From the NCBI GenBank assembly GCA_020056635.1, contig JAGVHI010000024.1:2317-66316 (forward strand): a stretch of DNA of 64,000 bases, written 5' to 3'. Origin of the DNA: an archaeon (GTDB lineage: Archaea > Micrarchaeota > Micrarchaeia > Anstonellales > Anstonellaceae). Positions 18,092 through 62,623 of this stretch are shown here, piece by piece (position 1 is the stretch's first letter; the number at the start of each line of letters is the position of its first letter). Made by a program: the position numbers and the translations under genes. Under the pieces are notes generated by a model, which saw only the letters and a program-made list of their open reading frames with translations, had not been told where the DNA came from and ran no database searches.

Positions 18092-18320
18092 CCCGCCATA
18101 GCTCAACCTGGCTAGAGCGCCTGGCTGTAGTCTGCCAAATCGGCCTTATGCGATTGCGCATGTGGTCATCAGGAAGTTGTGTGTTCAATAGCCCTTTTCT
18201 CTCTCCGAGAGAAAAGCCCTCGTGGAAAAGAGAAACCATTTGGCGAAAAATATCCGCTTCGCGCGGTTTTTTCGCGCTGATAAAAGTCTCTTTTCGGCTG
18301 AACCAATCACACTGGCGGGA
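18092..18320 (+). tRNA. tRNA-Tyr (anticodon GUA) with two introns (229-nt gene)
   Basis: Acceptor CCCGCCA/TGGCGGG with the archaeal C1:G72 pair and discriminator A. D arm GCTC-AACCTGGCTA-GAGC. Anticodon stem CCTGG/TCAGG, loop CTGTAG|intron 18131-18167|A. T stem GTGTG/CACAC, with the T loop TTCA|~18188-18304|AAT interrupted. Confidence 0.8.
18188..18304 (+). repeat. tRNA-associated structured element, copy E1 (T-loop intron of tRNA-Tyr)
   Basis: Modules: CCCTTTTCTCTCTCCGAGAGAAAAG hairpin, GGAAAAGAGAAACC purine tract, GCGAAAAATATCCGCTTCGCGCGGTTTTTTCGC hairpin. The junction is ambiguous by 1-2 nt because of flanking A residues. Confidence 0.7.
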
Positions 18321-36028: not shown

Positions 36029-36158
36029 AAAATCACTTCGTTGTTCTGGGAATTGGTGCTAATAAAGAGTTGTCACGAAAATAAGCCCTAAGCCCCGGAG
36101 CGATATCGACATCCTTTTTATCCCCGCGCCCGCAAACTAAACTGCCTGCCCCTGTAGC

Positions 36159-36307
36159 AGGGCCTTTCTTTTCCTCCGGAAAAGAAACCCCCGAGAAAGA
36201 AAAGAACCATGACCGCGAAAAATATCCGCTTTTCGAGCAGGTTTTTTCGCCCAAGAAAATCGCCATGTCATTAGCTTTTTTATCTCTCGTCTCGAAATCA
36301 GAGTTAT
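36159..36307 (+). repeat. tRNA-associated structured element, copy E2 (flanked by duplicated tRNA-Thr 5' end)
   Basis: GGCCTTTCTTTTCCTCCGGAAAAGAAAC hairpin, GAGAAAGAAAAGAACC tract, GCGAAAAATATCCG...GGTTTTTTCGC hairpin. Its 3' part TTATCTC..CAGAGTT is shared with copy E3. Bounded by TGCCCCTGTAGC on both sides. Confidence 0.65.
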
Positions 36308-36403
36308 GCCCCTGTAGCTCAGCAGCAGAGCGCCTGTCTTGTAAGAGCATAACGCCCAATTCAGGAAAACAGGAGGTCGCGAGTGCAATCCTCGCCGGGG
36401 GCT
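36308..36403 (+). tRNA. tRNA-Thr (anticodon UGU) with 24-nt canonical intron
   Basis: Acceptor GCCCCTG/CGGGGGC. D arm GCTC-AGCAGCA-GAGC. Anticodon stem CCTGT/ACAGG, loop CTTGTA|intron 36344-36367|A. T arm GCGAG-TGCAATC-CTCGC. The D and T loops are atypical. Confidence 0.8.
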
Positions 36404-60768: not shown

Positions 60769-60975
60769 TGGACTGGATGGGATTTCTGGGTGGCTAAAAC
60801 TCTGAGATAAGAAATATTTCTGGGTGAAAAAACCTGAGCGCGTGGCGCTCGGATATTTTTCATGCTCCCGGTTCTTTTCTTTCCCAGGGCTTTCTTTTCG
60901 CGGAGCGAAAAGAAAGGCCTGAACCCATGGCCTCTTCGTTGCGAACGAAGCGATCTACCGCTGATCTACCAGCCC
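60769..60975 (-). tRNA. tRNA-Ala (anticodon CGC) with 135-nt T-loop intron
   Basis: Acceptor GGGCTGG/CCAGTCC with G3:U70, discriminator A. D arm GATC-AGCGGTA-GATC. Anticodon arm CTTCG-TTCGCAA-CGAAG. T stem ATGGG/CCCAT with T loop TTCA|60785-60919|AAT. Confidence 0.8.
60785..60919 (-). repeat. tRNA-associated structured element, copy E3 (T-loop intron of tRNA-Ala)
   Basis: GGCCTTTCTTTTCGCTCCGCGAAAAGAAAGCC hairpin, GGGAAAGAAAAGAACC tract, and TGAAAAATATCCGAGCGCCACGCGCTCAGGTTTTTTCA hairpin. Confidence 0.7.
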
Positions 60976-61002
60976 AATAGAGGTAATTCTGCCTCCGAAG
61001 AC

Positions 61003-61010
61003 TTTTAAAT
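61003..61010. promoter_or_regulatory. Shared AT-box between divergent tRNA-Ala and Cys-rich paralog 2
   Basis: TTTTAAAT lies 28-35 nt upstream of the tRNA-Ala 5' end (minus) and 21 nt upstream of ATG 61031 (plus). Confidence 0.4.
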
Positions 61011-61030
61011 CGGTGTGGAGTTGTTATACC

Positions 61031-62623
61031 ATGGGAGGAGGAGTGGAGGAAACCCTTTCTGTGCTCGATAAGAGATGGAGGGGCGCTTGCAGGGTGCTGT
61101 TTAAGGAGGAGGTTGGCGGGCTTGCGGAATTCTCTTCTTACCTCTCTGAACTTCCTGAAAAAGTAACGCACCATCAATCGAACATTTCTGGAAAAGATGT
61201 TTCGTGCGCACCAACCGCATATGCAGAAGGTTCAAAATTTATTAGTTTCAATGAGGTTGATTTCAACAGGAAGTTCGAGTCATTGAACATAAATGAAATT
61301 AAGGATATTGATTCGATAGTCGAAGCGTTGGGCGAAAGGGCGGTTTATTCAGGCAATATAGTTTTCGGGAATTCCGGGCACGTTGAGAAAAGCTCGAACA
61401 TAAATGACAGCTTTTACCTTTATGAAGTTGCAAGGTGCGGGAATTCCAAATACATTGCTTACGGCTCGATATTCAGGTATAATGAAGATTGTTTTGGAAG
61501 CAATGTTATAGGGGAATCGGCGTTCTGCATCCGCTGTAACAGGGGTCTTAGGCTCAAGCGCTGCTTCGAGCTCTGGATGGTGCAGAATAGCTCTGATTGC
61601 TATTACTCATCTGGTCTGGATGGATGCAGCGAATGCATGTTTTGCTTCAATGTGAAAAATAAGAGGCATGCCATCGGGAATCTGGCGCTTGAAGCGGCAG
61701 AATACGAAAAAATCAAGAAAAAACTCCTTTCAGAGATGGCAGAAGGCCTTAGGAAGGGGAAAAAACTGCCCTCGCTTCTTGACTTGGTAAAGATGAGTAG
61801 AAAGGAAGAAATACCTGCAATACGGACCAGTTCGAAAATCTTGGAGAAACAAGACAAGGACAGGATTGAAGATGCTTTCTCGCAAACCGCATCTATACTG
61901 TTCGGCAACAGACTTACCGGAGGGATAGATGCTTATTCTGATTGGCTGAGTGGGCATACGAGGCCCATTGGAGAAGGCATTTCTGCGGCAAGCGGCAAAA
62001 GGATACTGATAGCACCATTCGCAAACTTCTCCAAACTTCCAGCAGATAGGATAATGACTGAAGAGGCGTGGGAGCTTGGAGGGAGAACTTCTTTAACAGA
62101 ATCTGAAGTTGGGGAATTGAGCATGAAAAACGCCCACGAGACGATCGGAAAGCTAGCATATTTCAATGTGGATTTGTTTGAAGGAAAAAATTCGAATATG
62201 ATAGACTGCACATATGCTGTCGATTCAGCGGATTGCTACAAAAATTCTAACTCGCTGTATTCCAAATATTGCGGCTATTGCTTCTGGCCCAGGAACAGCC
62301 AATACTTGTTTGGGTGCGATTCCCCATTCGATTCTGCATTCTCAATGCATGCGTATTCCTGTACCCAGCTTACGAGATGCTTTGAGGCAGACTGCTGCGG
62401 CTACTGCTCGGACCTGTATTTCGGGCACAATTGCGAGAACGTGCACGAGAGCATGTTCTGCTTCAATGTGAAGAACAGGAGATACCATATAGGGAATGCC
62501 GAAGTGGAACAGGGGAAATACAAGGAGCTGAAGGCATCGCTTCTAGGGCAGATTCATCAGGAGTTGCAGAAGAAAAAAGGGCTGAAGTGGGACATTTACA
62601 ACATCTGGAGCGCGAAAAAATGA
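61031..62623 (+). CDS. CxxC-rich, internally duplicated protein of unknown function (paralog 2)
   Basis: 530 aa, colinear with 47509-49095. Shared blocks include ISFNEVDFNRKFE, INEIKDIDSIVEA, CSECMFCFNVKNKRHAIGNLAL and HNCENVHESMFCFNVKN. Confidence 0.6.
   Translation: MGGGVEETLSVLDKRWRGACRVLFKEEVGGLAEFSSYLSELPEKVTHHQSNISGKDVSCAPTAYAEGSKFISFNEVDFNRKFESLNINEIKDIDSIVEALGERAVYSGNIVFGNSGHVEKSSNINDSFYLYEVARCGNSKYIAYGSIFRYNEDCFGSNVIGESAFCIRCNRGLRLKRCFELWMVQNSSDCYYSSGLDGCSECMFCFNVKNKRHAIGNLALEAAEYEKIKKKLLSEMAEGLRKGKKLPSLLDLVKMSRKEEIPAIRTSSKILEKQDKDRIEDAFSQTASILFGNRLTGGIDAYSDWLSGHTRPIGEGISAASGKRILIAPFANFSKLPADRIMTEEAWELGGRTSLTESEVGELSMKNAHETIGKLAYFNVDLFEGKNSNMIDCTYAVDSADCYKNSNSLYSKYCGYCFWPRNSQYLFGCDSPFDSAFSMHAYSCTQLTRCFEADCCGYCSDLYFGHNCENVHESMFCFNVKNRRYHIGNAEVEQGKYKELKASLLGQIHQELQKKKGLKWDIYNIWSAKK

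Follow-up and report, generated by a model that had tools for sequence, protein, structure and literature searches.

Introns in the T loop of tRNA genes have been described in ARMAN-2 (Candidatus Micrarchaeum acidiphilum), an archaeon in which the majority of tRNA genes are interrupted and the T-loop introns carry the bulge-helix-bulge (BHB) motif (PMC3239211). Here we consider a tRNA-Ala(CGC) gene whose T loop is interrupted by 135 nt. The gene lies on contig JAGVHI010000024.1 of an archaeal assembly (GCA_020056635.1, the host genome, G000; 1.10 Mb in 27 contigs, 79% complete), in a stretch of 64,000 nt that was analysed as a whole and is called the window below; the body of its intron is formed by one copy of a repeat of ~100 nt composed of two modules. 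The likeness to ARMAN-2 is close: the phylum is the same, the splicing endonuclease is of the same three-unit kind and the T-loop introns are bounded by BHB motifs (PMC3239211; PMC3488258). However, the introns of ARMAN-2 are short (13–25 nt in assays) and occupy positions 53/54 and 59/60 (PMC3239211), whereas the intron described here sits at 56/57, is 135 nt long and has as its body a repeat that is also present outside tRNA genes.

Transposed introns of the Thermoproteales are presumed to have spread at the DNA level under the constraint of the BHB (Fujishima et al. 2010, Mol Biol Evol 27:2233, as relayed in PMC4090602). Here, too, similar introns are seen in tRNAs of different identity and position; unlike there, copies are not confined to introns, as 7 out of 20 are non-intronic. 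The present case differs further in phylum and endonuclease type, in being a two-module cassette of ~100 nt with about one-third of its copies non-intronic, and in module combinations being shuffled between genera.

Module 1 of the repeat resembles the BoxC/PIT/TMECO elements, in which a pyrimidine run, a complementary purine run and a mirror purine run follow each other on one strand (Holder et al. 2015, PMC4666352). An interspersed, intergenic occurrence and flanks that differ between relatives are common to both. The BoxC/PIT/TMECO elements are bacterial and G-richer, and their folding has been shown for DNA (PMC4666352), while in our case the tracts are A-rich, the host is an archaeon and most copies are transcribed in tRNA precursors. 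The kind of gene (ARMAN-2) and the presence of related introns in many tRNAs (Thermoproteales) are known already; in the literature that we searched, no description was found of the long two-module cassette, of its presence at gene ends or of the mirror-repeat module. Archaea in general are known to have introns in T loops as well as families of introns that spread.

The interrupted gene and its splice motif

We consider it very likely (a probability of about 0.8) that the locus is a functional, single-copy tRNA-Ala(CGC) gene with an endonuclease-spliced T-loop intron at 56/57, the body of the intron being a ~100-nt repeat that is spared where it is harmless. As for the T-loop intron taken by itself, the features of the sequence described below indicate that it is real and very probably spliced.

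An earlier sequence-only reading of this DNA had proposed a T-loop-interrupted tRNA-Ala(CGC) with a 5′ part at 60975–60920, a 3′ part at 60784–60769 and 135 nt inserted between them. The sequence bears this out: on the minus strand the 5′ part reads GGGCTGGTAGATCAGCGGTAGATCGCTTCGTTCGCAACGAAGAGGCCATGGGTTCA (GGGCTGG...ATGGGTTCA), the 3′ part, AATCCCATCCAGTCCA, lies 135 nt from the 60920 end in that split, and the joined exons make a flawless cloverleaf that ARAGORN accepts up to a threshold of 120%. The acceptor stem has 7 bp (GGGCTGG/CCAGTCC) and includes G3:T70, i.e. the alanine identity pair G3:U70 that the same reading had pointed out; it is accompanied by a D stem GATC/GATC, an anticodon stem CTTCG/CGAAG with the loop TTCGCAA and anticodon CGC, a T stem ATGGG/CCCAT, the rejoined T loop TTCAAAT and discriminator A73, directly after which comes TTTTATTTT. 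Signs of maintenance were seen as well: the exons are 100% identical to those of the ortholog in a sister genus (G004), synteny with a diphthamide-synthase gene is conserved, and the gene is the only tRNA-Ala(CGC), present in a single copy, in the 79%-complete assembly. The spacing of the TATA-like box upstream of the gene (Table) would suit an archaeal TATA box that is followed by a short leader. The open reading frame (ORF) 60860–61177 on the minus strand had been called an artefact, rightly so: it overlaps the tRNA, runs antisense to a 536-aa gene (61013–62623, plus strand) and is without a Pfam match.

Search programs handle the gene poorly. The Rfam tRNA model covers only positions 7–64, with 31.6 bits as compared with 51–58 bits for three other tRNAs of the window; at a relaxed threshold, Rfam reported over the locus only tRNA and two meaningless miRNA matches, and no C/D-box or H/ACA-like features were seen there by eye. 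As the gene is either mis-called (by ARAGORN, see below) or barely scored (by Rfam), the tRNA complements of metagenome-assembled genomes (MAGs) of Micrarchaeota will be undercounted.

We enumerated all cut pairs yielding mature tRNA-Ala and scored them for the BHB. An A flanks both junctions, and the sequence alone would fit 56/57 or 57/58. The junctions hold one strict 3-4-3 motif, with the central helix GGGU/ACCC (4 of 4 pairs), the 5′ bulge UC^A and the 3′ bulge AG^A (^ marks the cut), an inner helix GGC/GCC of 3 bp and an outer helix of 1 bp, which is the relaxed HBh′ form; it is because of this geometry that we place the cuts at 56/57. The unconstrained minimum free energy fold of the 207-nt precursor forms the GGGU/ACCC helix, the UCA bulge and the GGC/GCC helix (z = −4.8). 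A motif-first scan of the region produced ~15 candidates in roughly 4,000 cut pairs, and only the 56/57 motif gives the correct tRNA. Two other cut pairs, each with a 2-bp inner helix, are also passed by ARAGORN. One of them removes 118 nt, with the helix GGGT/ATCT; like the other, the removal of 101 nt considered below, it leaves tail sequence rather than AAATCCCATCCAGTCCA as the 3′ part, so that neither restores the tRNA-Ala cloverleaf.

The same geometry was found in four further T-loop copies of the repeat with other intron strands: GUCC, GCCC and GCCU facing GGGU, and GCCA facing UGGU; the exon-strand partner varies compensatorily among the T-loop copies. In tRNA-Tyr the motif is GUUC/GAAC, with the cut at 58/59. 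The sequence-only reading had placed the Ala and Tyr insertions at one and the same point, 57/58; it was right about the loop, while the BHB puts the two cuts at 56/57 and 58/59, respectively. A genome-wide motif-first scan for T-loop-like sites recovered all seven element-bearing T-loop introns and one element-free intron.

The enzymes needed are encoded in the host genome. Its splicing endonuclease EndA (399 aa; C11:23001–24200) has two catalytic-domain matches and an N-terminal domain, and aligns full-length to PDB 4FZ2 (E = 5e-130), which identifies it as the epsilon2 type; that structure belongs to the epsilon2 endonuclease of ARMAN-2, an enzyme able to cleave strict as well as relaxed motifs at non-canonical positions (PMC3239211; PMC3488258). 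The RtcB ligase was found with a score of 581 bits. The nearest EndA relatives in named genomes belong to Candidatus Micrarchaeota and to Anstonellaceae MAGs, and this fixes the lineage of the host.

With these parts, expression could proceed as follows. The TATA-like box would drive a tRNA-Ala precursor of ~207 nt, in which G50–U53 of the gene (G51–U54 in the standard numbering) would pair with ACCC near the 3′ end of the intron, and GGC at the intron 5′ end with GCC just upstream of ACCC, leaving two 3-nt bulges 4 bp apart. The epsilon2-type endonuclease would cut both bulges, at 56/57, and RtcB would join ...CCAUGGGUUC to AAAUCCCAUCC, restoring the T loop TTCAAAT. In this reading the repeat would persist only in places where it is harmless, either within endonuclease-spliced introns or immediately after genes. 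The T loop would be a favoured place, since GGGUUC, near-universal in tRNAs, builds half of the splice motif; with GGGUUC supplied in this way, an intron ending in RCCC-AR would be spliceable in any tRNA without adaptation. The repeat most likely spreads by recombination or conversion between copies at the DNA level.

A two-module repeat inside and outside introns

Used as an nhmmer query, the 135-nt insert found 13 copies in the host genome, and 20 after three iterations. The copy in tRNA-Tyr (18189–18309 of the window) was recovered among them, confirming the homology of the two inserts that had been read from the letters. Placement was determined by splicing trials and inspection of flanks. 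Seven copies are in T loops (Ala-CGC, Ser-CGA, Arg-TCT, Ser-GGA, Phe-GAA, Leu-CAG and Tyr-GTA) and six in anticodon loops, three of which (Glu-CTC, Gly-CCC and Asp-GTC) could be shown to have a strict hBHBh′ motif at 37/38; one is in a tRNA trailer, 3 nt behind tRNA-Lys; three are upstream of tRNAs, namely Thr, Arg-CCG and a third that can be taken for Gly-TCC or Trp-CCA; three (contigs C6, C7 and C25) have no adjoining tRNA gene. The element is thus intronic in 13 tRNA genes of differing identity and position (56/57 and 58/59 in the T loop; 37/38), and the 12 genes other than tRNA-Ala include sole isoacceptors.

The seven non-intronic copies are located in the trailer, upstream of tRNAs or right behind protein genes. 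On the same strand as the gene, copies begin 1 nt past the stop codons of a 494-aa and a 255-aa ORF, and another one 18 nt past an 86-aa ORF. About a third of the copies are, then, gene-end elements rather than introns; taken with the A5/U6 hairpin of module 2, this placement makes the cassette look like a terminator-like gene-end element.

At tRNA-Thr (36149–36318 of the window) the first 11 nt of the tRNA are followed by the element and then by the full tRNA. The same arrangement is present in a genome of genus g3 (L040, contig C23 of G017), with an 11-mer of its own, GCCCTCGTAGC, in both places. The arrangement is either conserved with concerted change or recurrent, rather than a one-off scar.

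In module 2, the hairpin reads as RNA GCGAAAAA-UAU-CC...GG-UUUUUUCGC and is followed by CC-NR-AAAUA; compensatory changes were seen in 6 of 10 pairs of its stem. A scan of the intron for terminator-like structures matched at 60850–60836 together with the T run (60832–60827). Oligo-T tracts are archaeal termination signals; the T6 of module 2 fits the gene-end copies, but should cost read-through inside introns. Full cores start after an A, and all 16 of them end in CGCCC-NR-AAAT-A, which resembles the splice site RCCC-AR^AAAT at the 3′ side of a T-loop intron. Two occurrences of the 11-mer CACCCAGAAAT lie on the minus strand of the Ala intron region, at the core end (60826–60816) and at the true 3′ junction (60792–60782). 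A matching pair of repeats is carried by the Arg-TCT copy (CGCCCTGAAATA ... CGCCCAA^AAATC).

In module 1 a pyrimidine strand is followed by a short loop and the complementary purine strand (R1); a C-rich/G-rich linker then leads to another purine strand (R2). MAFFT and RNAalifold run on the 16 cores recovered only the helix of module 2, with the low-complexity module 1 aligned out of register; module 1 was analysed by a dedicated script in 32 copies from the host genome and its relatives (27 distinct purine cores). In the Ala copy, R2 equals the reverse of R1 at 10 of 10 positions. Over the 32 copies the mean match of R2 was 0.967 to the reverse of R1 and 0.811 to R1 taken directly; the mirror match was the higher one in 30 copies and the direct match in none. 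When R2 was permuted against the R1 of other copies, 0 of 5000 permutations reached the observed mirror match, a test to be read with the relatedness of the copies by descent and the A-richness of the tracts in mind. We also tried R2 as a phase-shifted direct repeat pairing with the pyrimidine strand and rejected it: it would form 8 bp (Ala) or 6 bp (Tyr) as compared with 10–15 bp for the true partner, and, again, in 30 of the 32 copies the direct repeat matches less well than the mirror.

The strand order of module 1 is that of intrastrand triplex repeats, and the opposite strand has the plan of a pyrimidine-type triplex. One could speculate that module 1 (~45 nt) is a maintained three-stranded fold in single-stranded DNA (possibly in RNA) making the cassette prone to recombination; the cassette would then be kept in safe havens (gene ends and endonuclease-spliced introns), and the portable T-loop splice site CGCCC-NR-AAAT would let it colonise any tRNA. 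We think this rather improbable, and the three-stranded fold is for us a minority view; if true, it would explain at last by what mechanism archaeal tRNA introns spread, a question of long standing. According to PMC4666352, RNA does not form triplexes of the purine motif.

A minimal form of intron was seen in a metagenome contig (Ga0315274_10363799; L193, 1180–1440), where tRNA-Lys-UUU (anticodon loop CTTTTAA) has a 57-nt intron at 56/57. This intron is made of GGCC, module 1, GGCC, GCCC and AA only; module 1 alone can therefore make a whole T-loop intron. The third strand abuts the closing helix in this intron, so that here the splice motif and a full antiparallel triplex exclude each other. 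Among the metagenome contigs, an exact pattern with a gap of 0–30 nt gave no match to a spliced or short-intron allele; the 19-mer spanning the junction of T loop and element returned 80 loci, of which, by the covariance model, only the one just described contained the element, the others being chance matches.

Another candidate that we tried was a hairpin element derived from IS200/IS605 (a palindrome-associated or miniature inverted-repeat transposable element, PATE/MITE). It was rejected: there was no PF01797 match in the assembly, and the upstream contexts of the copies have just an A in common, where such an element would have a fixed target of 4–5 nt on its 5′ side.

Related loci and competing explanations

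A search with the 5′ exon found tRNA-Ala(CGC) in at least 40 related genomes. At 12 of the 19 loci inspected, the tRNA precedes a reading frame opening with MK[VA]AVLFSGGKDS; compare the start of the diphthamide synthase in the window, MRVIVLFSGGKDS (PF01902, an assignment made for the window's copy, the only one run against Pfam). The same tRNA-Ala in the same neighbourhood offers a clean comparison. In at least 11 other genomes the T loop is without an intron. The sister genus (G004) has a 32-nt intron at 56/57 with GGGU/GCCC, UC^G and AA^A, no core. In another family of the order (G054) there is a 45-nt intron at 56/57 with only a pyrimidine/purine hairpin. Four genomes of genus g2 (G019, G022, G034 and G027) have an unrelated intron of 67–130 nt at 59/60 with UUCA/UGAA. 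The host genome has the 135 nt. By these sequences, 56/57 is an old or recurrent intron site in tRNA-Ala, and the 100-nt core a variable passenger, either gained in the host genome or lost in G004. The introns of genus g2 (L018, L019, L021 and L023) are G/C-rich, and the 130-nt one in G027 has ~55 extra nt near the place of the apical loop of its first hairpin, suggestive of an insertion nested in the intron.

A covariance model built from the 16 cores found full two-module copies in two genomes only, 16 in that of the host and 5 in G004. Of the latter, three occupy orthologous positions: the T loops of Ser-CGA and Tyr, and the anticodon loop of Glu-CTC. Short forms with module 1 occur in genera g3 and g4, often right behind tRNA genes; genus g2 gave one weak match among 25 genomes. 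The G004 ortholog of tRNA-Glu(CTC) (L054, contig C48) has, besides the element in the anticodon loop, a second intron of ~50 nt in the T loop, and this second one is not present in the host genome.

The sequence-only reading had argued for site-specific insertion rather than independent gain of introns: a mobile unit would target TTCAAAT, and Ala and Tyr would be two strikes of one mechanism. There are observations in its favour. T loops hold seven of the 13 intronic copies; the notation TTCA^...^AAT is possible for six of these seven, and five have identical bulge geometry; moreover, full cores begin after an A and their T-loop-like end, CGCCC-NR-AAAT-A, amounts to microhomology to TTCA^AAAT. 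However, this leaves 13 of the 20 copies in other places (anticodon loops, leader, trailer, gene ends), and relatedness of the copies does not track position. Identities among the 16 full cores range from 55 to 87%. The copies most like the Ala core are non-intronic, namely the one in the tRNA-Lys trailer (83%), the one upstream of tRNA-Thr (77%) and a free copy (76%); the identity is only 63% to the Tyr copy and 66–70% to the other T-loop copies compared; the T-loop cores of Ser-CGA and Arg-TCT are 86% and 82% identical to the anticodon-loop copy of Glu-TTC. In addition, the tRNA-Ala orthologs in G004 and G054, with short, core-free introns that share the frame of the splice motif, indicate that 56/57 is an intron site independently of the core, and the cut in tRNA-Tyr is not at 56/57. 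We therefore find targeting of TTCAAAT doubtful, while the shared origin of the inserts stands. The likeness of the Ala core to non-intronic, gene-end copies points instead to a modular DNA repeat moving between gene ends and spliceable sites. Modules are evidently reshuffled, as a gene-end copy from another genus (G023) matches the Ala module 1 with 98% identity over 47 nt but has a different module 2 next to it. Conversion of the T arm together with the intron was considered and found no clear support: ATGGG/CCCAT is common to four element-bearing tRNAs, but ATGGG is present already in G033, whose Ala ortholog has no intron.

Several points weigh against a tRNA-Ala intron spliced from one precursor. 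Inside the intron there is a weaker 3′ site, CACCCAG^AAAT (removal of 101 nt, inner helix of 2 bp); the outer helix of the motif is just 1 bp, and the T stem has to open for the motif to form; the T6 run after the module 2 hairpin is conserved, and some transcripts may end before the 3′ exon; finally, neither a Y1 (HUH) transposase (PF01797) nor a reverse transcriptase was found in the 79%-complete assembly, an absence that bears equally on a targeting mobile unit.

The T6 run could also be taken as a sign of expression in two pieces, with the 5′ part stopping at the hairpin and T6, the 3′ part of 16–17 nt made from a start of its own, and the two joined through the BHB as in a split tRNA. An A/T-rich candidate for such a start, AGAAATATTT, lies ~26 nt upstream of the 3′ part, the Ala intron has a tail similar to the promoter-proximal sequence that precedes tRNA-Thr (TTATCTC...CAGAGTT), and non-intronic copies are, terminator-like, exactly at gene ends. 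Yet AGAAATATTT is weak as a TATA candidate, the two parts are adjacent and co-oriented, so that read-through is the simpler way to the same product, and all 13 tRNA genes would need the split route; to our knowledge, no split tRNA is divided in the T loop. We consider expression in two pieces very unlikely. It is still harder to believe that the repeat has turned tRNA-Ala(CGC) into a pseudogene: an uninterrupted tRNA-Ala(UGC) does exist and could read GCG by wobble, but both exons are intact and keep their identity to G004, all stems are perfect, the splice motif falls exactly at the junction, and the element is an intron in 12 other tRNA genes, sole isoacceptors included. The uninterrupted 74-nt gene that ARAGORN calls at 60902–60975 with default settings has practically no chance of being the real tRNA. 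Its T loop has 9 nt, its acceptor stem one mismatch and three G-U pairs, its T stem G-U and mismatched pairs; the call is lost at a threshold of 110%, while the spliced form is kept at 120%, and Rfam covers 7–64 only. Neither ARAGORN nor Rfam offered a better cloverleaf than the spliced form; a better one would, according to the sequence-only reading, have counted against it.

Feature coordinates and further introns

The coordinates of the locus and of the gene-end copies are collected in the Table.

Table. Parts of the tRNA-Ala(CGC) locus (window positions) and gene-end copies of the repeat (host contig and positions)
Feature	Position	Strand	Basis or content
tRNA-Ala(CGC), T-loop-interrupted	60975–60769	minus	sequence reading; complete once 135 nt are removed
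Candidate archaeal promoter, TATA-like box TTTAAAA, 28 nt upstream of G1	61003–61009	minus	direct reading
5′ exon, G1 to C56	60921–60975	minus	BHB-defined
135-nt intron at 56/57	60786–60920	minus	BHB-defined
Module 1	60874–60917	minus	pyrimidine strand, loop, purine strand, linker, mirror purine strand
Module 1, pyrimidine strand	60917–60905	minus	CCTTTCTTTTCGC
Module 1, purine strand R1	60901–60888	minus	GCGAAAAGAAAGCC
Module 1, mirror purine strand R2	60885–60874	minus	GGGAAAGAAAAG
Module 2	60815–60865	minus	hairpin GCATGAAAAA-TAT-CC(GAGCGC CAC GCGCTC)AGG-TTTTTT-CAC, then CCAGAAATA
Intron tail	60786–60814	minus	3′ strands GCC (inner helix) and ACCC (central helix; 60792–60789), AG of the 3′ bulge
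3′ exon, A57 to discriminator A73	60769–60785	minus	BHB-defined; AAATCCCATCCAGTCCA
Gene-end copies	C25:27917–28031; C20:20284–20403; C7:42964–43081; C8:28606–28731	minus; plus; minus; minus	behind 494-aa, 255-aa and 86-aa ORFs and tRNA-Lys

The element-free intron recovered by the genome-wide scan is a T-loop intron of 66 nt in tRNA-Val(CAC) (C8:~19253, plus strand), written TTCGAT^...^T, at ~59/60 and with the central helix TTCG/CGAG.

ARAGORN reports further anticodon-loop introns of 84–137 nt in the host genome, at C4:3637–3805, C5:26781–26981, C8:31601–31798, C9:6023–6221 and C11:53543–53753. The hidden Markov model of the element had no match to these five (one weak), which shows that the host genome holds other families of long tRNA introns.

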